Shown piece after piece: positions 24,432-41,723 of a stretch of 64,000 nt of DNA. The notes below the pieces were generated by a model. The model saw only the letters and a list, made by a program, of their open reading frames with translations, did no database searches and was not told where the DNA came from. This DNA is from an uncultured Eubacteriales bacterium (lineage in GTDB: Bacteria; Bacillota; Clostridia; Oscillospirales; CAG-272). Location of the stretch: positions 5,054-69,053 of the forward strand of contig CAJLXA010000004.1 of the NCBI GenBank assembly GCA_905210485.1, in the 5' to 3' direction. Made by a program: the position numbers and the translations under genes. Within the stretch, counting starts at the first letter, position 1, and every line of letters begins with the position of its first letter.

Positions 24432-24747
24432 GACTTTCTTCCTCCCTTATCACAAATGCATACATTCTGTTCATTTCCTCCCAATCTTTCGTAAAAGACT
24501 CGATTCGCTCGCGTCCCCGCGGCGTAATACTGTAATACTTCCGAAGCCGGCCGTTATGTTCCACCGCTTTTACGGTGAGAAGCGACGCCGCCTCCAGCCG
24601 ACGTAAAATCGGATACAAAGTCGATTCCGATATTTCCACATACGGTTCTATATCCTTTACGATACGGTAACCGTAGGAATCCTTGTTCTTGATGGCCGCC
24701 AGTACGCAGACATCAAGAAATCCCCGTTTCAATTGAATGTCCATCAT
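24418..24747 (-). CDS. PadR-family transcriptional regulator
   Basis: Winged HTH 'LDVCVLAAIKNKDSYGYRIVKDI..STLYPILRRLE'. Tandem ATGs at 24747/24744 behind GGGAGG. Confidence 0.85.
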   Translation of the reverse strand: MMDIQLKRGFLDVCVLAAIKNKDSYGYRIVKDIEPYVEISESTLYPILRRLEAASLLTVKAVEHNGRLRKYYSITPRGRERIESFTKDWEEMNRMYAFVIREEESHDRE

Positions 24748-24766
24748 ATACCTCCCTTCGCATAAT

Positions 24767-24795
24767 ACTATACCACACACAGTATATGCTGTCAA
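24767..24795 (-). promoter_or_regulatory. near-consensus promoter of the padR operon
   Basis: Minus strand reads TTGACA (24790-24795) - 17 nt - TATAGT (24767-24772), with an extended TG. Confidence 0.6.
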
Positions 24796-25737: not shown

Positions 25738-25757
25738 CGCCGTTCCCGGATATAAAA

Positions 25758-25788
25758 AGAGGGGGCAGGATAAAGTCCTGCCCCCTCT
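25758..25788. terminator. terminator hairpin between convergent LysR and phosphoesterase genes
   Basis: 13-bp stem AGAGGGGGCAGGA / TCCTGCCCCCTCT. TTTTAT follows on the minus strand. Confidence 0.7.
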
Positions 25789-25813: not shown

Positions 25814-27922
25814 TTATTTTCCGAGGGTATATTTCACAACCCAGCCGTTCGGAACGAAAAATCCGTATACGTCATTTCCGGCGCTGTCTTTGGCAACAAG
25901 GGGCGTTGCCGCCGAGCCGTCGGCATAACTGTAGGAGAGACGGTAGACATAGTGACAGAATCCCTCTCCGACGGTGATCTTGCCGTCCTTTACCGTAATG
26001 GTCGCGGTCCCGACATTATACCACGATTTTTCGTGATAATATTCCCGCTTACCGCCCGTTTCGCCGGCGGCATCATAGGTGAGATGATCGCCCGCAACGG
26101 CAACATCGGTGTAGGTCGCGTCAACGGAAAGGTCAATCTTCTTTTTCGTGCCGTCTTTGGCAAGGTAGAAATAATCGCGGAGCGGCGTGCGGTTTTCGTC
26201 GCGCGCGGCGGTAACGTATACATATTTCCCGTCGGCGTCAACAAGAACCGGCAGCCCCGTTTCGTCATAAAGATTACCGTAACGCAAAGAACCGTTTTTC
26301 GCCATCGTTTCGCCGCCGATTGTCAGAATATGATTGCCGTCGCGGAAAGACAAATGCGCGATCGTTTTGTAACGCGCCACTTCGGTTCCGTTTGCGTCAT
26401 TCAGAGCATAGGCTTCGATCTTTGTGCCGTTGTACACCACGTGCATTTTCAGATCCTCGCCGTTATCGCCGACAAAAACGAGGCTTTCCAGAAGTTCCGC
26501 ATTGCGGGAACTCATGGTCGCGCGGGTATAGCGCAGATCCATTCCGACCATCTGGGAGCTGGTCAGATTAAAAAGTCCTTCCTCGTAATAGCCGCTGAAG
26601 CGGTCGCGGTATACATCGGTATAACCGTCGGTTCTGAGATGCATACGGGTAAAGCTCCACGGATGATTTTCAAGATTGCCCCAAACGACGTTCTTGGAAT
26701 TACTGCGACAGTAGAAATAGGACGCGTCGGGATACGTGTCGAAATGCAGGGAAGAAATGGTCGTGCCGACGCAGAAAGAGGGAACGCCGCACACTTTGCC
26801 CGATGCTTCGCAATGGTTGTCGCCGTAGAAAATTCCTTTGACATTCGTACGCGTGGCAAGCGCTTCGCCAAGCGCCGCGTCGCCGTTCGAAAAAAGATGC
26901 GCCGCAAGATACGTCGTGTCATAGGAATCGGAGAGAATATCCTCCAGAACTTCCTCATTGCATCCGACGTACTGCGTAATATCACCGGCCACGTTTATCG
27001 ACGTGACATTAGGGTCATACACATAAGTAAACGGATTCAGAACCGCTACCGAAGCGATCTTCTCGTAGGACGTTCGGTTCATTTCCGAGGCGTTCGTATA
27101 ATAGGTATATCCCGCATCATGATATTTTTCAAGTTCGGAATCGGTAAGATTTGTCACAATACGGACTTTCCCGTCCATACGCACGGCGCGGACAAGGAAA
27201 TTATCGGGTTCATAGCCGAAAATGTCGCCGTAATGATAAAGGTTTTCCCAAGGTTCCCACGACACTTCGCCGGTTTCGTAGTCATAGAGGAAATCCCAGT
27301 CGTGGTTGCCGACGGCCACAAAATAGGGAATATGGAAATCGGTGAGCTGCGAAAAATACTTTTCTTTCAGCACATAATTGAAATCGAAGCCCGATCCCCA
27401 GAATTCGTCAAGCGATTCGCCGAGGAAGTAGGTTCCGGCAATGGCATTTCCGTTTTCCGCGGCTGATTCGTCGTAGCTACCCGCGGTATTGTTGTGCCGG
27501 TAATTGTTCCAATAGCGCTGATCGGACGGCAGGAATTTTCTGTAGCAACCGTCGTTTCTGCTGTTATCGCCGAGGAAAAGCACCATATCGTACTCGCCGC
27601 GGCGGTACATGGCGCAGAGTTCATCCATCACCATCTGCAAACGCGTTTCGTTGTCCCAGCCGAAGAACTCGGATTCGCCCCAGTAGGAATTGCTGTGCAG
27701 ATAACTGCCGCCGGTAACAGAACTTTTCTCATACGTACCGCTGAAATGCAGGTCGGTCACATAAAGAACCCGCAGTTCGCCGCCGGTTTTTTCAGGTTCT
27801 TCCTGTCTTTCCGATTCGGAATCTTTTTCGGAACTGTCGTCATTATCGTTCACGCTGCAGGAGACGCAACCGAAGAGGAAAATGAAAACGAGTAAAAGAG
27901 AAAGAAGTTTTTTCATCGTCAT
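25814..27922 (-). CDS. lipoprotein, calcineurin-like metallophosphoesterase with C-terminal beta-rich domain
   Basis: Lipobox 'LVFIFLFGC|VSCS'. Motifs 'VTDLHFSG', 'FLGDNSRND', 'VGNHDWD', 'YGDNHCE'. Collinear paralog of the C-terminal part of the 2772-aa protein. Confidence 0.75.
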   Translation of the reverse strand: MTMKKLLSLLLVFIFLFGCVSCSVNDNDDSSEKDSESERQEEPEKTGGELRVLYVTDLHFSGTYEKSSVTGGSYLHSNSYWGESEFFGWDNETRLQMVMDELCAMYRRGEYDMVLFLGDNSRNDGCYRKFLPSDQRYWNNYRHNNTAGSYDESAAENGNAIAGTYFLGESLDEFWGSGFDFNYVLKEKYFSQLTDFHIPYFVAVGNHDWDFLYDYETGEVSWEPWENLYHYGDIFGYEPDNFLVRAVRMDGKVRIVTNLTDSELEKYHDAGYTYYTNASEMNRTSYEKIASVAVLNPFTYVYDPNVTSINVAGDITQYVGCNEEVLEDILSDSYDTTYLAAHLFSNGDAALGEALATRTNVKGIFYGDNHCEASGKVCGVPSFCVGTTISSLHFDTYPDASYFYCRSNSKNVVWGNLENHPWSFTRMHLRTDGYTDVYRDRFSGYYEEGLFNLTSSQMVGMDLRYTRATMSSRNAELLESLVFVGDNGEDLKMHVVYNGTKIEAYALNDANGTEVARYKTIAHLSFRDGNHILTIGGETMAKNGSLRYGNLYDETGLPVLVDADGKYVYVTAARDENRTPLRDYFYLAKDGTKKKIDLSVDATYTDVAVAGDHLTYDAAGETGGKREYYHEKSWYNVGTATITVKDGKITVGEGFCHYVYRLSYSYADGSAATPLVAKDSAGNDVYGFFVPNGWVVKYTLGK

Positions 27923-27963
27923 TTGTGAATCCTCCCAATATATGCCTTTTTTATGATACCTTT

Positions 27964-27992
27964 ATTGTATCATATGCCTATAAAATTGTCAA
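27964..27992 (-). promoter_or_regulatory. near-consensus promoter of the 702-aa phosphoesterase gene
   Basis: Minus strand reads TTGACA (27987-27992) - 17 nt - TACAAT (27964-27969). Confidence 0.6.
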
Positions 27993-28057
27993 GGCGCAGA
28001 TTGACACGACTTTTTCACTCTTGGTGGATTTTTTGCGCACATTTTTCACCAAACGGA

Positions 28058-29920
28058 TCAATATTCTCCCTCGCCGTGAGTCCAGTCCAAGAAAGAGGGT
28101 TGTACATACGCCGTAATGCCTTTCGGCTCAAAATACCAGTCGCGATCGCCGTGCGTGGAAACATCTCCGTAACCGATCACGCAGAACCATGCGCTGTCAT
28201 AACGGTTGCCCATCAGTTCGTCGCGCGTGAGATCGAACGTAAAATGCTGGACGTCTTTATGTTCGGGAACAAAGTGACGGATCGGGAAGCCGTTACGGAT
28301 CACCGTGATCTTCTTCAGCGGATACCCGGTCATATGCAGTTCGATGTCCACATGGTAACTTTCCTTGTCAAAGGGCAGAATTCCGCCGGGGAGCGCGCCG
28401 TCCACCGTATAGGTCAGAAACGCGCCGGCATTGGTCGTTACGGAGAAATGACCCGCGCGGAGCGCCGTCACAATGCTGTTTGCGTCACGTTTTCCGTCCG
28501 TGAAAACATAGGCGCAACTCTGCCCCGGCTTATAACGCGTGCCGTCATGCGTATCGGTCGTGCACTGGTAATACATGCGGCGGTTATGATTATAAAGATC
28601 GAACAACGTGCGGAAAGAGGAGATATTCTCGACCATCGGAATATCCTTATGCTCGGTGGCCACCCACCAGGAGCGGAAGTACGGATTGGCGGCGGTATTG
28701 TTTGACGCATTGTCGGGGTGATTCAGCATCGGGCAGTAAAGATTTCCCTCGGGATTGTGCTGTTCGGCATAGCGGAGCCAGTACCCCTCGGACTTGCCTT
28801 TATAATCAATATTGAACGGCACATTGAGGAAGTTCATATGCGTGCGGTTATTGACGCATTCCTGACCGGGGATCGGGCTGAAACGTCCCTCTTCCGCCCA
28901 GGTGTAAACACCGTTGTCCACAATATTTTTTCCGCCGTGATCGGTAAGGAACATAAAGTCAAGGCCGTTGCAACGTCCGACTTTCGTAATTACGCGCGGC
29001 GTACAGCAGGCGTCTTCATAGCCGCTGTGAACATGGCAGTCGCCGCGGAGCCATCCCTCCGGCAACGTCAGGAGGCGGCGGAAACTGACGGTGGCCTCGG
29101 TGTCGTCGCCCGCGGGCATCGGCATCTCTACCATATCGTAATGCGCACCGGCGTCAAAGACAAGGCGCAGGTCGCCTTTCACATACGGTACTTTATGCGT
29201 TTCGCTGTAAAGGCGGTCGATCACCACGTCGATATGGGTTCCGCGCATAATGGAAACGCGATAATCCTCTTTTCCCGTGCAATGCGGCGTGAACCACGCA
29301 TAGGGGAACGGACGGTCGGGTTTTTTGAAGAACATGGCGTACCCGTTCCACGCGGAAATACGGAATTCACCGGTATGTTCCGCACAAACGCGGTAATAGC
29401 CGGGATCGCCGGCGGTCGTAATGTCGGTTTCATACCACGCGGCATAATCGGGAATCCACTTCGGGAGGATTTCCTCTCCGGACGGACGGAAAATGCGCGC
29501 CTTGGGGTTCTGCACGCGGAACGTCGTGATTGTCAGCGGTTCATCGGTTTCGGGAACGGCGACGTATACTTCCGCTTTGCCGGCGGGAAACAGCAGCGAT
29601 TCTTCGATAAACCGGGCATGCCATACGCCGGGACCTGTCAGAAGAAAAGGATAAGCGCCGCTTTCCTCGTCGGCGGAGAGAGTGAACGTGACTTTTTCCT
29701 GCGGAACGGCCGGGCTCAGCGTAACGGCGTAAACGCCTTTTTCCAGCGTTACGTCTTCACCGAAAACAACGCGGCGGCTATGGGTTGCCGTTTCGTCCAG
29801 CATCGTCATGACCGGGAGAGAAGCGCCCGTGCTGTCGCAACGGAAAACGGCGCCGTCACGCGTTGCATAAACAAAAAAGCGGGAAGTGTCGGTACCATTG
29901 AAAATAAGTTCTTGTTTCAT
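28058..29920 (-). CDS. PHP-domain (CehA/McbA-like) metal-dependent phosphoesterase with N-terminal beta-sandwich region
   Basis: ATG 29920 behind AAGGAG. No signal peptide. PHP motifs 'GDCHVHSG', 'FLTDHGG', 'TTDTHDG'. Confidence 0.65.
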   Translation of the reverse strand: MKQELIFNGTDTSRFFVYATRDGAVFRCDSTGASLPVMTMLDETATHSRRVVFGEDVTLEKGVYAVTLSPAVPQEKVTFTLSADEESGAYPFLLTGPGVWHARFIEESLLFPAGKAEVYVAVPETDEPLTITTFRVQNPKARIFRPSGEEILPKWIPDYAAWYETDITTAGDPGYYRVCAEHTGEFRISAWNGYAMFFKKPDRPFPYAWFTPHCTGKEDYRVSIMRGTHIDVVIDRLYSETHKVPYVKGDLRLVFDAGAHYDMVEMPMPAGDDTEATVSFRRLLTLPEGWLRGDCHVHSGYEDACCTPRVITKVGRCNGLDFMFLTDHGGKNIVDNGVYTWAEEGRFSPIPGQECVNNRTHMNFLNVPFNIDYKGKSEGYWLRYAEQHNPEGNLYCPMLNHPDNASNNTAANPYFRSWWVATEHKDIPMVENISSFRTLFDLYNHNRRMYYQCTTDTHDGTRYKPGQSCAYVFTDGKRDANSIVTALRAGHFSVTTNAGAFLTYTVDGALPGGILPFDKESYHVDIELHMTGYPLKKITVIRNGFPIRHFVPEHKDVQHFTFDLTRDELMGNRYDSAWFCVIGYGDVSTHGDRDWYFEPKGITAYVQPSFLDWTHGEGEY

Positions 29921-30003
29921 TGCGAAAAACTCCTTTTTACAATTGAAATGTACGCTTATGTTTACAAAAATGTTGGAATCAACAATGAGTCGCGCCAAAT
30001 GCA

Positions 30004-30080
30004 GCGGAACCGGAAAGAAAGCAAAAACGGGAACGGAAGTGGGGACGGGAACGGAAGCGAAAACGAGGATGGGAACGGAG
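30004..30080. repeat. short purine-rich direct repeats in the PHP gene upstream region
   Basis: ACGGGAACGGAAG at 30027-39 and 30045-57 (exact copies). ATGGGAACGGAG at 30069-80. Degenerate GCGGAACCGGAAAG at 30004-17. Confidence 0.85.
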
Positions 30081-30363
30081 CAGCGGTTTCCGCGCGCGGC
30101 ACAGATACGGGATGTTATACGCCGTCTTACTGCCGGAAATAAAGCCGGCCCCCGTCCGTTTCCATTTTACCACAGATATAAAGAAACGGGCGGTAAAAAT
30201 CAACATAAAAGCGCGTAAAAATGCGGTAAATCGGTATGAACGTCTTGTTCCCGCAACTACAGTCACATTATAGCGCCTGCCTGCGAACCTGTCAAGAGAA
30301 TTTTGCCGCGCACCCGACGAACGCCGACGACATAAAACAGAAAACGGCGCAAACCGCCGACCG

Positions 30364-30404
30364 AAAAAACCGCCCGCTTCCGCACAAAGTCGAAAGCGGG
30401 CGGT
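30364..30404 (-). terminator. rho-independent terminator of the megaprotein gene
   Basis: ACCGCCCGCTT / AAGCGGGCGGT stem, followed on the minus strand by TTTTTT. A second hairpin CCGTATATCGCT/AGCGATATACGG sits at 30438-30466. Confidence 0.75.
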
Positions 30405-30508
30405 TTGTCGGCGGGAAAATCTGCCCGTTGCCCGGCCGTATATCGCTGAAAGAGCGATATACGGCGGTTTCCGATTTCACGGAGGGGTCAAGACCCGTTT
30501 CGTGAAGA

Positions 30509-33500
30509 TCAGCGGTTAAACCATTCGCCGAGGTATTCCATATACGGAATATACATACCGTAGATGACATTGCCGTTTGCGTCGGTTTCGCGGCGAACGT
30601 CGCTTTCCGTAACGGTACTGCTGTCGGCATAGGTCAGGGTATGCACATAGGAGAAGTGGCAGTAACCCTCGCCGGCAACGATCTTGCCGTCGCGGATTAC
30701 GATCTGGGAGGACACTGTACTTGCCGTGTTGACCGCAGGATCGACGTAATACTTCGACTGTTTGAAATACGCATGATTCTGTACGTCTTCCGCCGTAACA
30801 AGATAAATATCGGTGATAACGATATTCTGTCCGCCGTTCGTTCTGGATTCCGCAAGCGTGCTTTCCAGGCTTACGAGTTCGCCGGCCTTGTTCTTATAGA
30901 ACCATTCGCGCTGATACGGAATATCGAGATCGCGGCCATAGGTTGCGTTGAATGTCTGCATCGACGCTTCGGAGGTCTTCTCCACGGCGGTATAGAATAC
31001 ATAGTCGCCGTTCTGATCGACATACACCCAGTCGCCCTTTTCGTCGTAGAGGTAATGACCCGAAATGTCGCCGTGAACGCCCACAAGATAATAGGTGGCG
31101 CCGTTAAAGGTAACGGCTTTACCCTCATCGGACATTGCCGTGAACACGCCGCTTCTTGCAAGGGTCAGTCCTTCGGCCTGGCCGAGCAACTGACCGGACA
31201 GCGTATAAACATTGCCCGCGGTATCAATGCGATACTTGTAGGACATGAACGTGCCTTTCGTGTATTCTTCCACGAGGTAGGAGAAACTCTGGCCGACCGT
31301 TACGGCGTCTCCGCCGACAAACACTTTGCGTGCGCCGGTCTTACCCTTGGCCGTGGCCTCGGCTTCGGTATAGAGTTTCGTGTCGCCCTTGTAGACGTAG
31401 TAGAAGTTGTGTGCGGCGAGCGACGCGGGAGCGGTGGCGCGGACATATTTTGCGTCCCAACCGGTCACGGTATCGAACGTCAGGCGTGCCTGCGTACCGT
31501 TTTCAAGGAAGAACGAGGGATGTACGCGGGTGGCGTACGAAGTGTCGCCGTGCACTCTCAGAACCATGTAGTTCCAGGAATGACGCGAGAAGTCGCCCCA
31601 GATTCTGTTGCCGATTTTGGGATTGCCGCGATCGTAATAATACTGATTGTCGGGTTCGGTATTGCCGTCGCCGTCGATATCGGCATAATAGTAGTCAATA
31701 TCGTATGCAGAAGAGAAGTGACCGACGACCCAGTAAGGAATCGTTGCGTAGTAATGCTCTTCGTCGTGCACGTCGCCGTAGAACGCGCCCTGTACATTGT
31801 CATAACCGTCAATCATCATTTCCATATCGGATTTAATTATCAGATGGCTGACCATGAACGTCTGGCCGTAACCTTCGGAAACGGTGCGATCCAGCATACT
31901 CTTGATCATATCCTGTTTCAGCGCGGCGCTGGAATAACGGATCGTCTGTCCCGTATAGTTCTTCACGCCGTCGATCGTGATAACGCCGACGTCGGTGAAA
32001 TATTGATAGGTATCCATACCGAATCCGTTCGTCATAACGAATGCGCCGAGTTTTTCGTCTGCGTCGGTGACAGTTTCTTCACTGACATAGAAATCGTAGC
32101 AATTCGTATCGGACGCGTATTTTTCTTTGAAAGCGCTGAGTTCCGCTTCGGTCATCGGCGTCAGGATCTTCACTTCGCCGTTACGGCGGATAACGCGAAC
32201 GAGGAAGTTCACGGAATCGCTGTCGGAATAGTGGATATACTCATCGTTGTCGTCGCGGAGGTACGAACCGTTATCGGTTTCGGTTCTGTGACCGAGCAGT
32301 TCCGCGTAATGGTACATATTTTCCCACGGCGTAAAGTCAAGGTCGTCTTTATTCTTGCTGTAGGTGTACTGATAGTCGTGGTTACCGTTTGTGATATAAT
32401 ACGGAATACCGTTTGCCGAAAGCTGATCGAAGAAGAGTTTCTTCACCACGTTCGACACGTTGATCGGAGATTCCCAGAAATCCGCGCAGGTCGGACCTTC
32501 AGGATCGTTATAGACCGTATTGCCTTTCTTAAGCAGGTCTTTATAGGTTACGTTGTTGATCTCAAACTTCACATACGGTGCGTCGTTCATCGCCTGGTCG
32601 CCGAGAATAAAGAGCAGGTCAAATTCGCCGTTCTTATATTTTTCGATGACTTCGTCCATGATGCGCTGGAGTTTTTCATCCGACGTCCAGCCGTAAATAT
32701 CATATTCCGCAGTGTAATAGTTGAATTCTTTCAGCGACTTCTGATTACCGACCGTCCAGCCGAATCTCTGAGAGGTTTTCAGCGTAGTGCCGTTGTAATA
32801 CTTCACCTGCTGCAGGGCATTCGTACCGGTGTAATGCGTATCGGTGAGGAGGAACGTGCGGAGCGTTTCTTCGCTCTTGTAAGTGTTCGGCTTCATCGTG
32901 TAAACCAGTTCGCCGAGCGCGCCGGTCTCTTCATCGTATTCATACACGCACGCCGAAACGGTAATGGTATTGATGCCGTTCTGCGCCGTACCGTTAAAGG
33001 TCTGCACCGAACCGTAATTCTTGTGGAGAGACGTAAGCTGATATGCGAAAGCGTTTCCGTTCGCGTCTTCGCCCGTGACGTCAACAAGAATCTTGTAGGT
33101 CTTGCCCGTGCAGTCGATAATGTCCATTGTCAGATCGAAGACGCCGGTATCCTTGTCTTCAAGCATATAAGAGGGCGATATGGCGATGGTTTCGTCTTCG
33201 CTATAATCGCCGACGCGGGTCAATGCCATCAGATTGAAGTGGAAATAGCCGCTGGAAACCACCATTTTCAGCGTATGCGTACCGGCTTTCAGGTTCAGCG
33301 TTCCGACCGAAAGCGGCATGGCGGTGGTGGAACAGTCGCCGAGCGTCTGTTTACCGAAGATCTTCTTTATCGGCAGGAACGAATTCGATTCGGCGGACAC
33401 CGTAATAACGGGGCCTTCGGTGGAACCGAGAACCGAGAGGTCGTATGCGCCGTCTTCGGGAACCGTGACATCGAAATAAACGATGGAGGGATAGTCCTTC

Positions 33501-36500
33501 GAGCCGCGGAGGAAGAAGCCGTTCTGGTAGAGATTGATGCTGGATCCGAGCGTACCGGATTTACCGAGCACATTGGTAAGCGACGTGTCGGCGGTCTTGA
33601 TCTCGGACGATGCGTAAACCACAGAGGCGCCGTCTGCTTTCATGAGCGCGGAGGGCGTGAAAGCGATGGAGTCAAGGCCGAGGCAGGTACCCGTCTGGTT
33701 GACGGTGATGCTGATGTTGAGTTTGTTTTCGCCGGCAAGAAGCCAGATATAGCTTTCGGCTTCTCCGTCAAATGCACCGTAACGCACTTCGGCCGAAACG
33801 GCGTAATCGCTGTCCTGCGTTGCCGTAGGCCATATCGTCGATTTGCCGAGACGCGCTTCGGCGGAGCCGTGCTTATTGAAAGCGGCGTAGGTTTCGTTCC
33901 GTATATTCACATACTGGATATAGCCGCCCGTCGTATTGCACTTCAGGTCGATGGCATAGGCGCCTTCTTTTTCGGCATAGACCGTAAAGGTGGCGGTATT
34001 ACCGTTTCTGAAAAGGCGGGTCTCGCCGTCATCAAGGAGAGACGCGCCGCTTGTCGCGTTCATCTCATCGGCGTGAACGGCAAAGGCATACGGGATATGC
34101 GCGAACGTTTCCGATTCGCTCTTCGTTACGGAGAAAGCGGAAGCGTCGATCTTCTTCACGCTGTTTTCGCCGCGGCATACAAGGATTTCGGACGCGGTGT
34201 GATAATCCGTATCCACCATAAAGACGCGGACGGACGCGATCGTTGCGCTTTCAATCGGCGTAACGGTGAAGGTAAGTTCTTCCGTATACTCGGATTTCAC
34301 GGCGTAGGTGCTGCCGACAAGGCTGTCTGCCTTATCGTAAGCGAGGCAGAGAACTTTACCGATGGGAAGACCCGTAGCGCGGACGCGCAGATCTGCCTGT
34401 GCGCCGAGCGAGACGGTCATGGTGTCGAGCGTCAGGCTGTTTGCGGGCGTTCCGATCTTCTTCAGAAGGAGATCGCCGACCGTTACATTGCCGTCTGCCG
34501 TCAGCGTGACGCGGTAGGTTTTGCCGCTTTCAAGCAATATGTCGCCGCCGATGTCGGTATCGGACAGGACAAACGCGCGTCCGGCAGGGACAGTAACGGA
34601 ACAGTTGCCTACCGTTTTATTGTCCGCAAGGCGTGTGACGATGAAAGAGAGGGTCGTCGTGTTGTCGGCGCCGAGCAGAGCATAGAAGTTGTAGAAGCCG
34701 GTATCTTCAGCCGTGAATTCATACGTAACGGAGGTTCCGTCCGTAAGCACGCGGCCGCCGGTCATGGTATCGGCCGTGCCGCCCGTAAGGGAGGACGCGG
34801 GGATACGGGCGCAGTCTTCGCCGGAAACGGCGGAGCGGCGGAATACAAGGTTGGAGACGCCGACCGGATAATCGTTGTCGTTTTCTTTCAGGCAATACAG
34901 CGTGACGGTGTTATCGCCCGCGGCAAGGTACATCTGAAGAAGCGTCAGCGTTTCTTTTTTCGCGGAAACGCGGAAATCTTCGTCGGACGGGTTCTTCACG
35001 GTATAGTCGGCAGTGCCGTCAAGCGAAGCGAACGCTTTTCCGTTCACTTTATCGCTCGCGGCGCCGATGGCGTATACACGGCCGCCGAGACGGTTCACGT
35101 CAGCCTCCAGCGTATACACGCCGGCCGTTCTCACATTGACCGTAAACGTCAGGGCATAGGTCGTATCGCCGACGGCTCTGAGGAGCACCGTACCGTCGGA
35201 GAGGCGGACGGCCTGCCCGAGCACCGCGTCTGCAAGAGAAACGGTTATATTATCGGGATTCGGCAGAGCGCGGGATACGAATTTTTCAAACGCGGTGTAT
35301 ATTCTTCTGTGACCGACTTCAGAAAGCGCGCCGTTCTTCACGCAGGAAGCGACGGTTTCCGCGTCGGAGAAGTCAAGACCGCTGTCGGAAGCGGGATCGA
35401 AGAATACAATGCCGCTTGTCTGCATCAGCGTCTGGAATGCGTCTTTATAGGCCGCGGCCGTATTGCCGGCGGCGTTTGCCGCTCCGTCGGACGGAATGGC
35501 GGAAACGGCGACGACCGTGCGGGAAGCGTCGGCCTGCGCGGCGGCAATGACCTGTGCAAGGCCGTTGCGGTAAGCGTCAAGCGAAGAATCCGCGAGATAG
35601 TCCGCGTTGCTTCCGAAAATCAGCACAATATCGGCCGACGGGATCGACAGCGTATCGGACGCGGCATAAGCGGGAACCGTATAAACGGTGGTCGTCATAT
35701 CGTATTTTGCGCCCATCATACCGAAAACGGTGCAGACTTCGTGATAGAGTCCGTGACCGAGCGTATCGGCACTGCCGATGACGGCGAGCGTTTTGTTTTT
35801 CAGCGCTTCGTCATAAAGCGTGTTGCCGGTGCTTTCGGCAAACAGACGGCTTTCATCAGCGGGCGTCAGGGTATAGACGGCGCCGCTGTAGGCGTCGGCC
35901 GCAAGAGAAAGGGCGTCTTTACCGTTTGCCTTTGCGGCAAAGCGGAGGCAGGTGTTGTTCTTTTCGGTGGTGACGGTATATACGAGACGGCCGCCGACCG
36001 CGCGGCAGGAAGCATAGGTGCCGGAAACGGCGCTGTAGCCGTTTGCCGTCAGGTTTTCTGTCGCTTCGGCGTCATAGGTGTATTCGCCGTTCCGGAGAGT
36101 ATATACCAATACGGCGGGCGCTTTGGCATAATCGTTTACATAGCCGGCCGCCGCGGTGAAGGTAAGGGTCGTTCCGGCGTCACGGATGAAGATAAGGTCA
36201 GTATAATAACCGTTGTCTGCGGAATAAGGCAGTCCGGCATCGGAGAGAAGACCCGCGTTATAGGAGGTATCCACCGTTGTATAGGCCTTTTCTTTTGCAA
36301 GTTCACGGCAGACAAAGCGAAAATCGGTATAACCGATGTTCGTATTGTTTCCGTTCTGCACGGTGACGGTATATTCCGTACCTTTGACAAGGGAAATACC
36401 CTCTGCAATCTTCGTGTCGATAACGGCGATCGACGCATTGGAGAACGCGTAGTTCGTGCCGGTCGTCCAGGGAGAGTTCTTGGCAAGGAACGTATACGGA

Positions 36501-38827
36501 ATCGAAGCGACCGGATTGTCCGGATCGTTCTTCGGCGCAATGATGACCGTAATATTGTTGTTGTTTTCCGACGCCACGTTCATATAGAGATCGAACGTGC
36601 CGGAAGCCGTGGCGGTGAACGTGTGCGTCACACTGCCGCCGCGGAACTGAATACCGCCGCCGCGGGTAGCGCCGTTCACGGTGGGGGCGTTGCCGTTCCC
36701 CGCGCTGCCGCTATAAGTGCCGGCGGCCGAGGCGTCCACATACATGGAGCCTGCCGTCTGCTTTGTTTCCAGCGCAAGCGAGAGGTTGTAAACGCCGATG
36801 GAAACGTCTTCGCCGCCATCGGGGCAAACGCTGAATGTAAAGTTATGTGTACCTTTTGTGAGGTAAATGAAGCCGAGCGTATCGCTTACGGCATAGGTCT
36901 CGTTCTGATTTTCCGCGGCGACCGTAAGATCCTTGTCGCCGTTGGTCTTGGCCTCTGTCGCGCTGTTGCCGAGACGTGTGGCCAAAGCGTGCGCGATCTG
37001 TTTGTCGGAGGAAAGGGATACGTACTGGATATAGGTATCCGCGCGGTTGGTCTTACCGTAGAGACGGTATACGCCCTCCACCTCGATGTCGGCGGTGAAC
37101 GTCAGGGTGCCCTTGTTCGGCACTTTGACGGTCTTGCCGTCCGAAAGGAGCGCACTGCCGCCGCCCATCGTCATATCCGCGGCATTGGCGGTGAAGATGG
37201 TTTTGGGATTTTCGGGTTCGCTTTCCGCGGTTTCCGGCTGATAGAACAGGAAAATATCGGCGAGCGCCATCTGGAAATTGGACGAAAGCGTGAGCGTAAG
37301 TTCACCGGCAGGCAGAATCAGCGTGCCGAGTGCGTCCGTATACAGCGTAGCGCGCGACGCGTCCAGGTATTTCAGACCGGTAGCGGTAATTGCGGACGTC
37401 GCCACCGTATTGCCGTCGGCGTTCTTGGCGGCTATGCTCAGCGTTCTGCCATCCGGCAGAGCCGTCATAAGTCCGATTCTGTATTTGCCCGCAACGGGAA
37501 CCGTTACGGTGTAATTGGCGTCGATTGTGGATTTGCCGGAGTTCGGGAAGTTCATAAACAGGAGATTGTTTACGCTCTTGCCGCCGAAATTCACCGTATT
37601 CTCACGGCTGACCGTCTGGGCGTCGGCATCTTTCAGATCTTCCGCGCCGAGCAGTACCGTGGTGTCTTCGATCTCGTCAGCCAACGTGAGGCGGGCGGCC
37701 GAAACCGAAAGCGGATTCTGTGCGCTTGCGGAAGAGGATACGACGCTGATCTTGTTTATCCCCGAATCCAGCGTGACAAAGCATTTGAAATCGACCATTT
37801 CCGCGTCGGAAGCCACGGCGCCGTCGTCGCTTACCGCGGTTTTGTCGGACAGCGACTGCATACGGGCGGTATAAGCGCGGTTATTCACATAGATCGTCAC
37901 CGAGTTCAACTGTCCTTTGTTCGCCGCTTTCAGCGTAAGGCCGTAAACGCCCGGCAGGGCTTTATCCACCGTAAACGAAAGTCCGGCTACGGAAGTCGGC
38001 AGGACGATGGTCTTATCGTAACCGTCGGTGGCGGCGACCGTTCTGGCGTCGGTGTTCGCGGCGGTAAAGTTTTCGCCGTCAAGGCCGCAGACAGCCATCA
38101 CGCGGCGAAGCGTTCTGGCGGTATAGTATACCGATTCGGTGTCCTCTTCGTTTTCCCTGTATTTATTAAGGAAATAATCCGAGAGTTCGTAAAGCGTGGT
38201 CGCGGCACCGTATTCGCCGTCGGCAGAACCGAAAACATCGCCGGCCGCACGCGTATAGGTAATCGTGGTATTGCCGTCTTTCGTCAGGGCGAGAAACGCG
38301 CAATAGACAAGGCCGTAACCCTTATAGGCGTCCGCAGTCTGGTAACCTTCGGAAAAAACGGTCGTATAGGCGAAGGTCGCTTCCGTCGCGCTATATGTAA
38401 GGAAACGCATCGTCGCATAATCGGGACGAACGCCGTTTTCCTTCGTGGCATACACCGTAACGGCGGCGACATACGAGTCCTCCGCGGTATCGTTCACGAA
38501 TCCCGCTTCGGTCTTTTTCACCTTCATGTTATCGGCGGTATAACGGCTTTCACCCCGTTTTTCGCCGATACCCATCATGGCGCCGTAAGCAACGGTATAA
38601 CCTTTGGCTTCCAAAGCCTTTACCGCCGCCTGATCAACGCGGAACAGGGAACGGATGCCGGGTTCTTCTTTATACCGTGCGGCAAGCCCCTCATACGTGA
38701 TGATTTCTTCCGCCGTATCCGGCTCGCTCGCCAGAGCGGGCAGGGACGACAGGAAAACGCTGCACAGCATCACCGCCAGAAGCAGGACGGTTACGAGGCC
38801 GTGTACGTTTCGTTTTGCTTTTTTCAT
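30509..38827 (-). CDS. 2772-aa secreted multi-module protein with C-terminal metallophosphoesterase
   Basis: ATG 38827 behind AAAGGAGGA. Sec signal 'LLLAVMLCSVFLSSLPALASE'. At least 8 beta-sandwich-like modules, a degenerate SGNH-like segment, then 'LLTDTHYTG', 'ILGDQAMND', 'TNGNHDYQY', 'YGDVHDEEH'. Confidence 0.85.
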   Translation of the reverse strand: MKKAKRNVHGLVTVLLLAVMLCSVFLSSLPALASEPDTAEEIITYEGLAARYKEEPGIRSLFRVDQAAVKALEAKGYTVAYGAMMGIGEKRGESRYTADNMKVKKTEAGFVNDTAEDSYVAAVTVYATKENGVRPDYATMRFLTYSATEATFAYTTVFSEGYQTADAYKGYGLVYCAFLALTKDGNTTITYTRAAGDVFGSADGEYGAATTLYELSDYFLNKYRENEEDTESVYYTARTLRRVMAVCGLDGENFTAANTDARTVAATDGYDKTIVLPTSVAGLSFTVDKALPGVYGLTLKAANKGQLNSVTIYVNNRAYTARMQSLSDKTAVSDDGAVASDAEMVDFKCFVTLDSGINKISVVSSSASAQNPLSVSAARLTLADEIEDTTVLLGAEDLKDADAQTVSRENTVNFGGKSVNNLLFMNFPNSGKSTIDANYTVTVPVAGKYRIGLMTALPDGRTLSIAAKNADGNTVATSAITATGLKYLDASRATLYTDALGTLILPAGELTLTLSSNFQMALADIFLFYQPETAESEPENPKTIFTANAADMTMGGGSALLSDGKTVKVPNKGTLTFTADIEVEGVYRLYGKTNRADTYIQYVSLSSDKQIAHALATRLGNSATEAKTNGDKDLTVAAENQNETYAVSDTLGFIYLTKGTHNFTFSVCPDGGEDVSIGVYNLSLALETKQTAGSMYVDASAAGTYSGSAGNGNAPTVNGATRGGGIQFRGGSVTHTFTATASGTFDLYMNVASENNNNITVIIAPKNDPDNPVASIPYTFLAKNSPWTTGTNYAFSNASIAVIDTKIAEGISLVKGTEYTVTVQNGNNTNIGYTDFRFVCRELAKEKAYTTVDTSYNAGLLSDAGLPYSADNGYYTDLIFIRDAGTTLTFTAAAGYVNDYAKAPAVLVYTLRNGEYTYDAEATENLTANGYSAVSGTYASCRAVGGRLVYTVTTEKNNTCLRFAAKANGKDALSLAADAYSGAVYTLTPADESRLFAESTGNTLYDEALKNKTLAVIGSADTLGHGLYHEVCTVFGMMGAKYDMTTTVYTVPAYAASDTLSIPSADIVLIFGSNADYLADSSLDAYRNGLAQVIAAAQADASRTVVAVSAIPSDGAANAAGNTAAAYKDAFQTLMQTSGIVFFDPASDSGLDFSDAETVASCVKNGALSEVGHRRIYTAFEKFVSRALPNPDNITVSLADAVLGQAVRLSDGTVLLRAVGDTTYALTFTVNVRTAGVYTLEADVNRLGGRVYAIGAASDKVNGKAFASLDGTADYTVKNPSDEDFRVSAKKETLTLLQMYLAAGDNTVTLYCLKENDNDYPVGVSNLVFRRSAVSGEDCARIPASSLTGGTADTMTGGRVLTDGTSVTYEFTAEDTGFYNFYALLGADNTTTLSFIVTRLADNKTVGNCSVTVPAGRAFVLSDTDIGGDILLESGKTYRVTLTADGNVTVGDLLLKKIGTPANSLTLDTMTVSLGAQADLRVRATGLPIGKVLCLAYDKADSLVGSTYAVKSEYTEELTFTVTPIESATIASVRVFMVDTDYHTASEILVCRGENSVKKIDASAFSVTKSESETFAHIPYAFAVHADEMNATSGASLLDDGETRLFRNGNTATFTVYAEKEGAYAIDLKCNTTGGYIQYVNIRNETYAAFNKHGSAEARLGKSTIWPTATQDSDYAVSAEVRYGAFDGEAESYIWLLAGENKLNISITVNQTGTCLGLDSIAFTPSALMKADGASVVYASSEIKTADTSLTNVLGKSGTLGSSINLYQNGFFLRGSKDYPSIVYFDVTVPEDGAYDLSVLGSTEGPVITVSAESNSFLPIKKIFGKQTLGDCSTTAMPLSVGTLNLKAGTHTLKMVVSSGYFHFNLMALTRVGDYSEDETIAISPSYMLEDKDTGVFDLTMDIIDCTGKTYKILVDVTGEDANGNAFAYQLTSLHKNYGSVQTFNGTAQNGINTITVSACVYEYDEETGALGELVYTMKPNTYKSEETLRTFLLTDTHYTGTNALQQVKYYNGTTLKTSQRFGWTVGNQKSLKEFNYYTAEYDIYGWTSDEKLQRIMDEVIEKYKNGEFDLLFILGDQAMNDAPYVKFEINNVTYKDLLKKGNTVYNDPEGPTCADFWESPINVSNVVKKLFFDQLSANGIPYYITNGNHDYQYTYSKNKDDLDFTPWENMYHYAELLGHRTETDNGSYLRDDNDEYIHYSDSDSVNFLVRVIRRNGEVKILTPMTEAELSAFKEKYASDTNCYDFYVSEETVTDADEKLGAFVMTNGFGMDTYQYFTDVGVITIDGVKNYTGQTIRYSSAALKQDMIKSMLDRTVSEGYGQTFMVSHLIIKSDMEMMIDGYDNVQGAFYGDVHDEEHYYATIPYWVVGHFSSAYDIDYYYADIDGDGNTEPDNQYYYDRGNPKIGNRIWGDFSRHSWNYMVLRVHGDTSYATRVHPSFFLENGTQARLTFDTVTGWDAKYVRATAPASLAAHNFYYVYKGDTKLYTEAEATAKGKTGARKVFVGGDAVTVGQSFSYLVEEYTKGTFMSYKYRIDTAGNVYTLSGQLLGQAEGLTLARSGVFTAMSDEGKAVTFNGATYYLVGVHGDISGHYLYDEKGDWVYVDQNGDYVFYTAVEKTSEASMQTFNATYGRDLDIPYQREWFYKNKAGELVSLESTLAESRTNGGQNIVITDIYLVTAEDVQNHAYFKQSKYYVDPAVNTASTVSSQIVIRDGKIVAGEGYCHFSYVHTLTYADSSTVTESDVRRETDANGNVIYGMYIPYMEYLGEWFNR
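31750..32870 (-). other. calcineurin-like metallophosphoesterase catalytic region of the megaprotein
   Basis: D-x-H (32834-32842), GD..ND (about 32585-32615), GNHD (about 32375-32400) and GD-x-H (about 31760-31790) motifs occur in canonical order. Confidence 0.7.
33411..37960 (-). repeat. array of about 140-170-aa beta-sandwich (CBM-like) modules inside the megaprotein
   Basis: Recurrent signature G-x-[YF]-x-[LIF] after F/Y-T-[FV]: 'GVYGLTL', 'GKYRIGL', 'GVYRLYG', 'GTFDLYM', 'GVYTLEA', 'GFYNFYA', 'GAYAIDL', 'GAYDLSV'. These fall at about 37930, 37475, 37070, 36575, 35105, 34680, 33940 and 33435. Confidence 0.6.
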
Positions 38828-38895
38828 GTGCAAAATCCTCCTTTTTCCGTTATATTGGTACAGAATTTTATGCATAATGATGGTATCACGCTTAT

Positions 38896-38901
38896 ATTAT
38901 A
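38896..38901 (-). promoter_or_regulatory. candidate -10 (TATAAT) of the megaprotein gene, poor -35
   Basis: Minus strand reads ..AAGACA-17 nt-TATAAT, about 70 nt upstream of the ATG. The weak -35 would fit activator dependence. Confidence 0.4.
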
Positions 38902-39015
38902 GCAAACCCAAACGCTACTGTCTTGTGCAATCCTCAACTTATTGTGTGTTTTCTAAAAAATTTACAAAAAAAATAGGTATTTTCTGCAAATTTTGTATGT
39001 TTTTTGAAAAAACAG

Positions 39016-39044
39016 TTGTAAATATCCCTGTCATATGTTACAAT
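39016..39044 (+). promoter_or_regulatory. promoter of the AraC-family gene
   Basis: TTGTAA (39016-21) - 17 nt - TACAAT (39039-44). Confidence 0.55.
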
Positions 39045-39103
39045 GAAAGAGAAACGTGCCGGGTCACTGCGCCCCGCGTCGCAAAGCAAAGGAGACCGGA
39101 AAA

Positions 39104-40051
39104 ATGAACAGTAATCATTATAATCAAATGTTATCTTTGGACATCAGAGTGGCGCCCGGAAGTGAAACCGTCTACTGCCTCATGCAACCGGAGAGTCCGG
39201 GAAAAATACGCCCCGCCGTGGAATACGATTGCCTGTTCCGCGTCGGAAAAACGCGTTGCACGCCGGACTACTACTGTCATTTCTACCCGGCTTATCACAC
39301 CTGCTTCATGTATTTTATATCCGGTTCGGGAACGCTCTACCACGACAAGACGGAGTATCACCCCGTGACGGGCGATCTCTTTATCCTGCATGCCGGCTCC
39401 GAATGGGAATATATGACCGATCCGAAAGACCCGTGGGAACTGATATGGCTGAACAGCCAGACGTCCATCGGCGGTGCACTTCTGGAAATGTACGAACTGG
39501 AAGACAAAGTATGCGTTCACAATGCGGACGTCTACCCCGTTATGAACACGATTTTCGACATCATGTCCCATGTGGACAAACGTCCGTGGGAACTGCGCGA
39601 CAACGTGATGAACCGTTTTCTTCATCTGATACAGCAGACCGCGCAGGCGGCGCAGTTCCGCCACGGCGACACAAAACAGCTCCGTGACGCCAACATCATG
39701 AAAGAATATATCGACGCGCACATCATGGAAAATATACGTCTGTCCGACGTCAGCCGTCTTGTTTACCGCTCCGACGGCGGCGCAACCACGATCTTCCGAA
39801 AAGCCTACGGACTTTCGGTCAAAGAATATATTCTGCAGACGAAACTGGAGATCGCGTCACGGCTCCTGATCGAAACGCCGTATACCGTCACGGCGATCTC
39901 GGACATGCTGACATTCTGCGACGCACAGCATTTCTCGCGTATTTTCCGCTCCCGGTACAACATGGCGCCGCTGGCTTACCGTAAAAACATGCGGGAGATC
40001 GACTCCCGGAACAGCGGCGTTTCCCACGAGGTCCGATTGCCGGAAAGATAA
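39104..40051 (+). CDS. AraC-family transcriptional regulator (cupin sensor + HTH_18)
   Basis: N-terminal cupin-like 'FISGSGTLYHDKTEYHPVTGDLFILHAG'. C-terminal 'YGLSVKEYILQTKLEIASRLL..ISDMLTFCDAQHFSRIFRSRYNMAPLAYR'. ATG 39104 behind GGAGA. Confidence 0.85.
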   Translation: MNSNHYNQMLSLDIRVAPGSETVYCLMQPESPGKIRPAVEYDCLFRVGKTRCTPDYYCHFYPAYHTCFMYFISGSGTLYHDKTEYHPVTGDLFILHAGSEWEYMTDPKDPWELIWLNSQTSIGGALLEMYELEDKVCVHNADVYPVMNTIFDIMSHVDKRPWELRDNVMNRFLHLIQQTAQAAQFRHGDTKQLRDANIMKEYIDAHIMENIRLSDVSRLVYRSDGGATTIFRKAYGLSVKEYILQTKLEIASRLLIETPYTVTAISDMLTFCDAQHFSRIFRSRYNMAPLAYRKNMREIDSRNSGVSHEVRLPER

Positions 40052-40208: not shown

Positions 40209-41723
40209 TCAGTCGGCCGGAAACACGACGGCGATCTCCGACAGCCGCGTAAGAACGTCCTGCTTCAGGCTGATGAACGCGACATAGCGGCGCAGGGCGC
40301 CGTTGCCGTAATAGGCATTATAGGCGGTTTCGTAGGCTTTCTGTTTTTCGGCGTCGGTGCTGTTTGTCATATACGCGAGATACTCATTATAGATCCCGTT
40401 CAGTTTATCGTCGGCAACGGTGACGCCGAGCGCCTTGGCGGCCGCGTGGTAAATGAGATACTCCTCCACATTGGTTTCGGCGAGTTCCCGGATCCTGTTT
40501 TCCACCTCTTCTTCGGTGGCCGGCGTTCCGTCGGTATTTTTAAACAGCGTCTTTTCATAATCCAATAAGGTAGGATACTGTGAACTGCCGTTCTTTTCGA
40601 CATAGACGTCGTACTCCACACGGATATACGCCCGCACCTCGGTCTCCGCGGCGGTAAGCGCTTTTTTCGGATAAGCGGTCACAGTGGCAAGACGGTACAG
40701 TTCCGCGTCACAGGCTTCGGACAGGGCGCTTTTATAGGTTTCGTTCTCCACGCTCTGCAGATACGATTTCACCACGGCGCGGAACTCTTCCACGGCGTTT
40801 TCGGAGTCAATCTTGCCACCCGTCACTTCCTTAATAAATTCGCGCGTCAATTCCGGAATAACGGGGCGCGTGAAGGACAGAGGAACGATATGAAAGGTAA
40901 CGTTTTTTCCGACGTAGTTTTTGAAGTCGGTATTTTCGTAACTTTCGGGCAGGGTCAGCGTAATGTCGAAAGTTTTCTCTTCGGTAATGACGAAATGCGG
41001 CGTAATATCCGCTTTGATGATCCGGCTGTATTCGTCAATGTAACTATAGGCTTCCTTTGCGGTCTCGCCAATCGTGAGGCCGATCAGAGAAGCGTTCAGA
41101 TTTTTTTCAAAGTCGCTGTCGGCGCGGGAAAGATCCATACGGGAAAAGGCGCGGCTTTCCGCCAGCCTTACGATGGCGCCGTCGGTATCTTCATAATAAA
41201 AGACAATACTGGCGATAACGGTATCGTTTTCTTTGACCGTACCGCTTTTTGTCTCCACAAGTTTATAGTCCGACGGGACAAGGGCGCTGTTTATGATCGG
41301 ATCTTCAAACTCCGCGTCACGATCCTTGATGAAACTGTCGCCGCCTTCGCCGAGCAGAACGCTCACGGTCTTTCCCGTATAATTGGTAAGCCCCTCTATC
41401 GGGCGGCCGTTTTCCGCCGTGGCATAATACAGGAATGTCAGCGTGTCGCCCGCCGCGACCGCCACATCGGTCAGTTCTTTATCGCTTGCGGCCTTTTTTT
41501 GAAGTTCCGCGATATAGTCGTTTACGTCCTGATCGCCGACAACGGCGGCGGGTTTCACTTTAACGGTGAAACCGTTCAGCGTTGCGCTGTCAAGCGACAC
41601 ATAGGGGGTCAGATTTTCACGCGCATAATCATAGACGGCATTTCCGCAGGAAAAAAGTCCGCCGACGAGGATCGTGAGGACAAGAAAAAGGGGGATATGC
41701 GCGAGGCGCTTTTTCTGTTTCAT
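40209..41723 (-). CDS. lipoprotein with trigger-factor-like region
   Basis: ATG 41723 behind GAAGGAAG. Lipobox 'LVGGLFSC|GN'. 'GKNVTFHIVPLSFTRPVIPELTREFIKEVTGG' resembles the trigger-factor PPIase/C-domain junction. Confidence 0.55.
   Translation of the reverse strand: MKQKKRLAHIPLFLVLTILVGGLFSCGNAVYDYARENLTPYVSLDSATLNGFTVKVKPAAVVGDQDVNDYIAELQKKAASDKELTDVAVAAGDTLTFLYYATAENGRPIEGLTNYTGKTVSVLLGEGGDSFIKDRDAEFEDPIINSALVPSDYKLVETKSGTVKENDTVIASIVFYYEDTDGAIVRLAESRAFSRMDLSRADSDFEKNLNASLIGLTIGETAKEAYSYIDEYSRIIKADITPHFVITEEKTFDITLTLPESYENTDFKNYVGKNVTFHIVPLSFTRPVIPELTREFIKEVTGGKIDSENAVEEFRAVVKSYLQSVENETYKSALSEACDAELYRLATVTAYPKKALTAAETEVRAYIRVEYDVYVEKNGSSQYPTLLDYEKTLFKNTDGTPATEEEVENRIRELAETNVEEYLIYHAAAKALGVTVADDKLNGIYNEYLAYMTNSTDAEKQKAYETAYNAYYGNGALRRYVAFISLKQDVLTRLSEIAVVFPAD

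Follow-up and report, generated by a model that had tools for sequence, protein, structure and literature searches.

A rare metallophosphoesterase-fold module, stand-alone and fused to jelly-roll arrays, in an uncultured gut Eubacteriales bacterium

A 64-kb stretch of contig CAJLXA010000004.1 from an uncultured Eubacteriales bacterium (assembly GCA_905210485.1; this whole stretch is called the window below) carries three neighboring minus-strand genes (genes 1, 2 and 3), the last of which encodes a secreted megaprotein, and a plus-strand AraC-type regulator gene (araC). Here we describe the module shared by genes 1 and 3, which has a metallophosphoesterase (MPE) fold with conserved metal ligands and defines a very rare family whose members come from a narrow lineage of gut Eubacteriales, uncultured and spore-forming. 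In the reading that we favor, with a probability of roughly 55%, genes 1 and 3 are paralogues in a family of extracytoplasmic enzymes, targeted to a polymeric glycan or glycoconjugate by arrays resembling the carbohydrate-binding module (CBM) families CBM6 and CBM35 and controlled by a dedicated AraC; the probable target is a glycan or glycoconjugate that bears phosphate and is located on the cell surface. The new elements are the extremely divergent, rare ~800-residue module, the attachment of eight CBM-like modules to it rather than to a glycoside hydrolase (GH), three conserved domains without known relatives, and a conserved pairing with an AraC subfamily; the superfamilies themselves are already known, and enzyme-CBM fusions are commonplace. 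The window's own sequence turns up repeatedly in human-gut metagenomes, and about 17 variants of gene 1 with at least 90% identity are recorded.

The shared module of genes 1 and 3

BLASTP aligns the whole of gene 1 with the C-terminal ~790 residues of gene 3 (26% identity, E 2e-63), and the alignment runs past the phosphoesterase domain to a common C-terminal signature, DGKI.AGEG.CH.SY…ADGS…GN.VYG. The locus thus holds two paralogues of one module of ~800 amino acids (aa) rather than two independent phosphoesterases, a paralogy overlooked in the first-pass annotation of this DNA. Behind the MPE domain, ~330 residues are conserved throughout the family and have no Pfam or PDB relative. Gene 1 passes the gathering score of the Pfam family Metallophos (PF00149), with 28.9 bits where 21.5 are required (E 1.9e-6), and PF00149 is also carried by P0016, P0017, P0020, P0023 and P0033 (P00xx denotes relative proteins, and L0xx the loci compared). 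Sequence-level searches of the PDB with gene 1 and with the module profile gave no usable match.

In an alignment of 16 module sequences, with 30-55% identity to that of gene 3, D20-x-H22, G100-D101…N105-D106, G172-N173-H174(-D), H352 and G375-D376-x-H378 are invariant or nearly so (in gene 3 numbering, D1996-x-H1998, G-D2077...N2081-D2082, G-N2149-H2150-D, H2328 and G-D2352-x-H2354). Invariance of the metal ligands outside the last motif, and of the GNHD histidine, at such low identity suggests selection on the active site. An AlphaFold2 (AF2) model of the module, built from the family alignment, is confident (mean predicted local distance difference test score (pLDDT) 81.7, predicted template-modeling score 0.87). 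In a Foldseek comparison of this model with the PDB, the leading matches are purple acid phosphatases and 2nxf, a dimetal phosphatase (E 3e-5 to 6e-4, 7-9% identity), and CD73, Mre11, SbcD and Dbr1 match more weakly; in BFVD the top matches are annotated as viral calcineurin-like phosphoesterases, with 5'-nucleotidases lower. All significant matches, PDB and BFVD alike, are MPEs. Conserved motifs and fold together bear out the intact-looking calcineurin-type MPE domain that had been recognized in genes 1 and 3, and suggest that the module is catalytic. Membership of the purple acid phosphatases was considered and rejected, as the module has DxH at motif I, GDxxxND without a Tyr at +3 at motif II, and GDxH at motif V; the likeness is at the fold level only.

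An exhaustive HMMER search of 1.84 billion cluster representative proteins returned only 37 proteins at E≤1e-3, of which 22, each representing a cluster, fall at E<1e-30 and have the module in full. Eight of the 22 full-module proteins are giants of 1.9-3.0 thousand residues with the module at the extreme C-terminus, and the others have 700-1300 residues. The short members carry lipoboxes and the giants carry Sec signals, together with a ~210-aa N-terminal domain in common with gene 3. A word-indexed homologue search with gene 1 found the query itself only. When a 6-sequence alignment was scanned against 185,579 species-representative genomes and the JGI metagenomes, the genome collection yielded one metagenome-assembled genome (MAG; 'Eubacteriales bacterium' SGB_4631) and the metagenome collection two contigs. 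At one site (L009, 10001..19520), three tandem family paralogues (1206, 899 and 892 aa) follow a gene for a DtxR/MntR-type metal-dependent repressor; at the syntenic site in another MAG (L014), one paralogue follows the same repressor.

Architecture and regulation of the megaprotein

Ahead of the module, gene 3 contains eight modules of ~130 aa (M1 to M8: aa 260-380, 420-527, 553-684, 717-838, 1201-1329, 1346-1451, 1590-1723 and 1759-1863), which emerged from fragment-wise phmmer and an iterated hidden Markov model (HMM); self-BLASTP of the whole protein detected no repeats. All extended family members have the unit of M7, M8 and the following immunoglobulin (Ig)-like domain ahead of the MPE module, and the two Ig-like domains of gene 3 are conserved in relatives. 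The AF2 model of this unit (aa 1585-1990, pLDDT 87.6) has a jelly-roll beta-sandwich fold, and Foldseek matches it (E ~3e-6) to Cry protoxin domains and to the sugar-binding arrays of jelly-roll and Ig domains in GH2 enzymes. Against PDB sequences, the top matches of the M7-M8-Ig profile are almost all CBM6/CBM35 and are weak (1.2e-4 to 0.15), with 8zvk at 1.2e-4 followed by 2bgo, 2cdo, 2vzp and 1uxz. The earlier description of gene 3 as a secreted multi-module protein with CBM-like beta-sandwich repeats is supported.

The N-terminal domain (aa 45-255) has no Pfam or PDB relative. Between M4 and M5 lies an SGNH/GDSL-like stretch that scores below the Pfam threshold for Lipase_GDSL_2 (E 3.9e-5, 24.7 bits against a cut-off of 32.9). 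It reads VIGSADT (GSA) where the GDS nucleophile is expected, and no DxxH block was seen; it has no counterpart in family relatives and no usable PDB sequence match. It was rejected as a true SGNH/GDSL hydrolase on account of its score and the absent GDS serine, and the missing serine together with the lack of a counterpart suggests that the insert is probably degenerate. The relatives P0022 and P0024 have an intact SGNH domain (GDS, GRND) at another position.

The araC product combines a ligand domain (AraC_binding, E 2.2e-8) with a helix-turn-helix (HTH) region (HTH_18, E 1.4e-14; HTH_AraC, E 2.8e-12), and its gene is separated from gene 3 by the 276-bp divergent control region noted previously. 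AraCs that are 39-40% identical to it over the full length, ligand domain included, adjoin module genes in three other loci, with the regulator divergent in L010, upstream on the same strand in L013, and divergent from a ~3000-aa megaprotein in L016. The similarity of other AraCs on these contigs is confined to the HTH region, and this difference supports a dedicated pairing of AraC and module gene. A shared AraC operator was sought in three AraC-target intergenic regions, which gave AT-rich chance matches only.

The first-pass annotation had proposed gene-neighborhood conservation as a check on its reading and had held that failure of the three genes and AraC to co-occur in relatives would speak against it. 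The outcome is divided: AraC is a conserved partner of module genes (L010, L013 and L016), and the trio as a system is not conserved in L003-L017, where gene 2 homologues lie away from module genes.

A GH123 gene (beta-N-acetylgalactosaminidase family) lies directly beside a module gene in two independent loci, L016 (12220..13929, +) and L014 (13544..15178, -); in L016 it is immediately downstream of the ~3000-aa megaprotein gene with the divergent AraC. This adjacency is a possible clue to the substrate. Genes for GH3, GH2 and an aldose epimerase occur near the module gene of L012.

Gene 2, transcription units and gene models

Gene 2 matches the NCBIfam model NF038032 (CehA/McbA family metallohydrolase, PHP-like) over residues 289-566 (E 5.5e-30, 104.9 bits against a cut-off of 80), and it has no Pfam match, Pfam PHP (PF02811) included. 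Its ligands H296-x-H298, D327, E354, H361, H401 and D456-x-H458 are invariant in 14 homologues equal to it in length, down to 24% identity, and its profile gives weak PDB matches, over the first motif only, to the PHP proteins 3e0f and PolX. The conserved ligands and these weak matches support membership of gene 2 in the PHP superfamily, to which it had been assigned by motif. The characterized members CehA and McbA hydrolyze the carbamate ester of carbaryl, dependent on histidines of the PHP-like domain (PMC8292978), so that phosphoesterase chemistry of gene 2 cannot be assumed. The first-pass annotation had described a locus of three phosphoesterases; genes 1 and 3 fit this through their MPE-fold domains, and gene 2 is better described as a cytoplasmic PHP-fold CehA/McbA metallohydrolase.

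Gene 2 homologues adjoin no module gene in the other loci examined, and both gene types co-occur in two MAGs; the link of gene 2 to genes 1 and 3 is positional only, in one species. Homologues with 36-40% identity lie in same-strand arrays that include sugar ABC transporter genes: one with GH116, GH94 and GH39 (L006, 1449..17612), in which a PHP gene and an additional small gene for a Metallophos protein are also present, and one with GH20, GH31/36, GH95 and a HAD sugar phosphatase (L017, 804..12347). In L003, a 1839-aa secreted protein (4271..9790, +) with at least five of the same jelly-roll modules is encoded directly upstream of a gene 2 homologue, and no MPE or other recognizable catalytic domain was found in it. 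In this MAG the flanking genes (Ala racemase, TruB and AddA-like helicase) show synteny with the beginning of the window. A 522-aa protein encoded upstream of the gene 2 homologue in L004 was set aside: Pfam gave nothing, and its BLASTP similarity to gene 3 was not significant (E 0.041).

Table 1. Features of the locus (window coordinates).
Feature	Position	Strand	Description
Gene 1	25814..27922	-	702-aa lipoprotein; stand-alone copy of the ~800-aa module of MPE and C-terminal domains
Gene 2	28058..29920	-	620 aa, cytoplasmic; C-terminal ~280 aa PHP-type CehA/McbA metallohydrolase domain, N-terminal ~290 aa unrelated to CehA/McbA
Gene 3	30509..38827	-	2772-aa secreted megaprotein; architecture common to relatives of 1.9-3.0 thousand aa
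araC	39104..40051	+	315 aa; cupin ligand domain and HTH_18; divergent from gene 3
Gene 1 terminator	25754..25788	-	13-bp GC-rich stem, then T run; read from sequence
Gene 1 promoter (predicted)	27964..27992	-	TTGACA-17-TACAAT with TG; 11/12 positions
Gene 2 promoter (predicted)	30267..30295	-	Perfect TTGACA-17-TATAAT; then ~340-nt leader
Second, weaker hairpin after gene 3	30345..30359	-	
Gene 3 terminator	30364..30403	-	CCGCCCGCTT...AAGCGGGCGG, then T6
Gene 3 promoter (predicted)	38896..38924	-	AAGACA-17-TGnTATAAT; 10/12 positions, extended -10, -35 = 4/6
Candidate araC promoter	39016..39044	+	TTGTAA-17-TACAAT with TG; 9/12 positions
Gene 3, Sec signal peptide	38711..38827	-	About 39 aa, ALA/SE cleavage site; read from translation
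Gene 3, N-terminal domain	38063..38695	-	aa 45-255; conserved in giant family members only
Gene 3, jelly-roll modules M1 to M4	36314..38050	-	aa 260-838; iterated HMM
Gene 3, domain 'X'	35798..36310	-	aa 840-1010; conserved in relatives, no Pfam match
Gene 3, SGNH/GDSL-like insert	35228..35800	-	aa 1010-1200; sub-threshold Lipase_GDSL_2
Gene 3, jelly-roll pair M5-M6	34475..35227	-	aa 1201-1451; CBM_35 sub-threshold
Gene 3, Ig-like linker domain	34058..34465	-	aa 1455-1590; conserved in P0018, P0021, P0022 and P0024
Gene 3, jelly-roll pair M7-M8 and Ig-like domain	32858..34060	-	aa 1590-1990; hmmsearch, AF2, Foldseek
Gene 3, MPE-fold domain, putative catalytic	31508..32851	-	aa 1993-2440; ligand conservation, AF2, Foldseek
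Gene 3, C-terminal domain	30512..31510	-	aa 2440-2772; beta-rich, conserved, invariably after the MPE domain

Genes 1, 2 and 3 read as three transcription units rather than an operon, since each has its own predicted promoter and terminators follow genes 3 and 1 (Table 1). The hairpins after genes 1 and 3 and the near-consensus gene 1 promoter agree with the first-pass annotation, which overlooked the perfect promoter of gene 2 just downstream of the gene 3 terminators. For the gene 3 promoter, the reported TATAAT -10 is present and the statement that it lacks a good -35 was overstated; with a partial -35 and an extended -10, the argument for activator dependence is weaker than was claimed. 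Promoter-like sites are not enriched in number (11 found against 11.0 expected in shuffled sequence), and the case for these promoters comes from their quality and placement. The interval 29921..30295 (-) comprises the gene 2 promoter and the leader, which is unusually long and has a C/T-rich stretch in which CCGTTCCC is repeated three times (about 30025..30075). When the leader was examined for a riboswitch or other RNA structure, Rfam gave no match, and its predicted folding was not more stable than that of shuffled sequence (z = +0.62).

All four open reading frames (ORFs), with the coordinates and every motif first quoted for them, were found in the translations, and so were the localization signals: a lipoprotein signal with the lipobox LFGC (…FLFGC) in gene 1, a Sec signal (MKKAKRN, a hydrophobic core and PALA/SE) in gene 3, and no signal peptide in gene 2. 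The ATG of gene 2 at 29920 has an AAAGGAG ribosome-binding site and agrees with the N-termini of 13 homologues, and the ATG of gene 3 at 38827 is preceded by AAGGAGG. Longer alternative starts exist upstream (gene 2 TTG 29998, gene 3 ATG 38875, araC GVG 39056), but the shorter ATGs of these three genes carry good ribosome-binding sites. The genes are taken as real because the proteins have homologues and the structure models are confident. A 2753-aa antisense ORF (30641..38902, +), which sits exactly in the codon register of gene 3, was rejected as a gene. It exists because gene 3 has no TTA, CTA or TCA in its 2772 codons, compared with 0.43% in 16 other window genes (~12 expected), and its frame is interrupted by stops in the homologues of L016 and L008, which makes it a by-product of codon usage. 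Long shadow ORFs also accompany many other genes of the window.

Just past araC, two lipoproteins of 524 and 702 aa (40209..41783 and 43372..45480, both -) weakly resemble the trigger factor C-terminal domain and may act as extracytoplasmic chaperone-like proteins; a tie to megaprotein folding would be speculation. The 702-aa ORF is equal in length to gene 1, yet unrelated to it. On the other side, a compact set of three genes for a PadR regulator, a HAAS-domain protein and a DUF4097 'toastrack' protein (22852..24795, -) adjoins a LysR gene convergent on gene 1. Farther away, positions 6000..10000 form a low-GC island (46-50% against ~54% elsewhere) with an ORF at 7444..9393 (-) of 649 aa, no Pfam match and atypical codon usage (third-position GC fraction (GC3) of 0.48 and 2% TTA/CTA/TCA); this ORF and the island were probably acquired horizontally.

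Interpretation and comparison with known systems

In the favored reading, the core of the family would be a binuclear MPE-fold domain with large insertions, followed by the family-specific beta-rich domain (~800 residues in all). Short members such as gene 1 would be membrane-tethered lipoproteins, and long members such as gene 3 would be secreted through Sec, with the N-terminal domain, Ig-like spacers and up to eight jelly rolls of distant CBM6/CBM35 relationship placed before the module. The jelly-roll array would hold the enzyme on a polymeric glycan or glycoconjugate, in which the two-metal center would hydrolyze a phosphate ester, either a phosphodiester bridge or a phospho-substituent. 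The cupin-type AraC would turn the megaprotein gene on upon a small-molecule cue, and the cytoplasmic gene 2 product may process an imported breakdown product.

Several observations weigh against this reading. Gene 3 does not reach the Metallophos threshold of Pfam (18.1 bits, E 0.0039). The motif set is that of classical MPE ligands except that the last motif is GDxH instead of GHxH. With regard to the loss of metal ligands, which the first-pass annotation had named as damaging to its reading, four motifs are kept in the 16 sequences and the fifth is altered; the altered motif is itself invariant there, and its Asp could still ligate metal. The gene 3 modules fall short of CBM6/CBM35 membership (the best Pfam CBM_35 score is 20.6 bits, E 5.8e-4, where 28 bits are required), so that they are 'CBM-like' at the fold level and at a weak profile level, with sugar binding predicted. 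Neither a glycoside hydrolase nor a sugar transporter is encoded in the 64-kb window, the module loci L009, L011, L012 and L014 lack the AraC pairing, and gene 2 lies beside a module gene in this species only. The relatives all come from metagenome-assembled fragments, and the gene-context sample is ~10 loci.

A more specific version, which we put forward tentatively and consider rather unlikely as a whole, is that the family represents a new class of glycan-directed MPE-fold phosphodiesterases, in which the CBM6/35-like modules would dock on phosphodiester-linked polymers containing N-acetylgalactosamine or N-acetylglucosamine (GlcNAc), the enzymes would cleave the phosphate bridges with the cooperation of the adjacent GH123, and the gene 2 family would finish imported phosphosugars. 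Candidate polymers would be, in other Gram-positive gut bacteria, repeat-unit-phosphate wall polysaccharides and teichoic acids, or else phosphorylated host or dietary glycoconjugates.

An alternative with some merit, although we judge it unlikely, is turnover or remodeling of the cell envelope: the substrates would be wall polymers linked by phosphodiesters, such as teichoic-acid-like polymers or repeat-unit-phosphate polysaccharides, in the producer itself or in neighboring Gram-positive cells, and their cleavage would support growth, spore formation or germination, or the salvage of phosphate instead of foraging on dietary or host glycans. Some clostridia have repeat-unit-phosphate polysaccharides, and Bacillus has in PhoD an MPE-related enzyme that breaks down teichoic acid. 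Such a role would suit the position of gene 1 and the other short members as lipoproteins at the membrane-wall interface, the multiple paralogues per genome (five in MAG GCA_965341435.1), and the location of the loci among housekeeping and sporulation genes rather than sugar-utilization loci. However, no wall-binding domain (SLH, CW_binding, LysM or SH3) is detectable, cupin-type AraC regulators are more typical of catabolic induction, and the GH123, GH3 and GH2 neighbors point to exogenous glycans.

It is also quite unlikely, in our estimate, that there is no functional unit at all, with the three genes adjacent by chance and the megaprotein mainly an adhesin or matrix protein whose MPE-like domain is altered or not a phosphoesterase. 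The separate promoters and terminators, the unlinked gene 2 in other genomes, the variant GDxH motif, the SGNH-like insert without its nucleophile, and the three gene 3 domains without known relatives would all be compatible with this. It is opposed by the invariance of the other metal ligands and of the GNHD histidine across the divergent module sequences, and by the MPE module being the one constant element of the family, found also alone as a lipoprotein, which marks it as the functional core and not an appendage.

A role in scavenging nucleic acids or nucleotides outside the cell is improbable. The MPE domain would then be a nuclease, phosphodiesterase or 5'-nucleotidase-like enzyme acting on extracellular DNA, RNA or (cyclic) nucleotides, with the modules as spacers or adhesins. 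Surface-anchored MPEs of Gram-positive bacteria commonly act on nucleotides (e.g. CpdB and an Enterococcus cell-wall-associated nucleotidase), and 5'-nucleotidases (CD73 and viral) are among the lower Foldseek matches. On the other hand, the best fold matches are of the purple acid phosphatase and ADPRibase-Mn types, and neither a 5'-nucleotidase C-terminal domain nor a sequence-level match to UshA, CpdB or SbcD was found; eight CBM6/35-like modules are unexpected for a nuclease, and glycoside hydrolases are neighbors in other loci. A single operon or Gram-positive polysaccharide-utilization locus was rejected, given the separate promoters, the window without glycoside hydrolase or sugar transporter genes, and the unconserved trio in L003-L017.

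Phosphate-bridged glycans include teichoic acids, capsules, phosphomannans and zwitterion-modified glycans. To our knowledge, their dismantling by gut bacteria is poorly understood and very few dedicated enzymes are known; the MPE and CBM-like array family is a concrete, testable candidate for it, and the soluble gene 1 lipoprotein paralogue (660 aa) should be easy to express. Whatever the substrate, the family adds a highly divergent branch to the MPE superfamily, three conserved domains without known relatives, and an AraC-megaprotein pair for finding the inducing signal. It also cautions that three adjacent motif-bearing genes need not form one system.

The layout of the locus matches no characterized system, and glycoside hydrolase, peptidase, LPXTG, SLH and dockerin domains are not detectable in it, both as originally stated; its parts can be compared with known families. 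With the MPE superfamily (PF00149), the module shares the alpha/beta-sandwich fold, the DxH, GDx(n)D and GNHD motifs and the lone His, and it is extracytoplasmic, as are many bacterial MPEs. The nearest solved folds are the mammalian purple acid phosphatases 1war and 1qhw and the ADPRibase-Mn-like dimetal phosphatase 2nxf, from which the module differs in its low identity (only 7-9%), its GDxH last motif, its large insertions and the ~330-aa domain that always follows. Purple acid phosphatases have DxG and the GDxxY tyrosine ligand, and the module lacks both. The gene 3 modules resemble CBM6/CBM35 (2bgo, 2cdo, 2vzp and 1uxz) as ~130-aa jelly rolls in tandem arrays beside a catalytic domain in a secreted enzyme, but they score below the Pfam gathering thresholds and are joined to a phosphoesterase-fold domain instead of a glycoside hydrolase.

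Gene 2 is like CehA/McbA in its NF038032 domain match and its His/Asp/Glu ligands. It differs in a ~290-aa N-terminal domain unrelated to CehA/McbA and in the setting of its relatives, which lie in glycoside hydrolase arrays of gut Firmicutes, whereas the CehA/McbA members come from soil pseudomonads and rhizobia (PMC8292978).

Two characterized phosphodiesterases are closest in the role proposed here. Bacillus subtilis PhoD is reported (PMC4223295) to be a secreted phosphodiesterase related to purple acid phosphatases that frees phosphate from organic compounds. There is no detectable sequence similarity between PhoD and the module family, and PhoD differs in belonging to the PhoD-like Pfam family, in Tat export, in control by the Pho regulon and in having no binding modules. 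GlcNAc-PDase, a sugar-specific phosphodiesterase of gut clostridia (PMC10704324), is a small single-domain enzyme with the fold of the endonuclease/exonuclease/phosphatase superfamily and without a CBM-like array; despite these differences, it sets a precedent for enzymes of gut Clostridia that free phosphodiester-linked groups from glycans, the activity suggested here for the family of genes 1 and 3.

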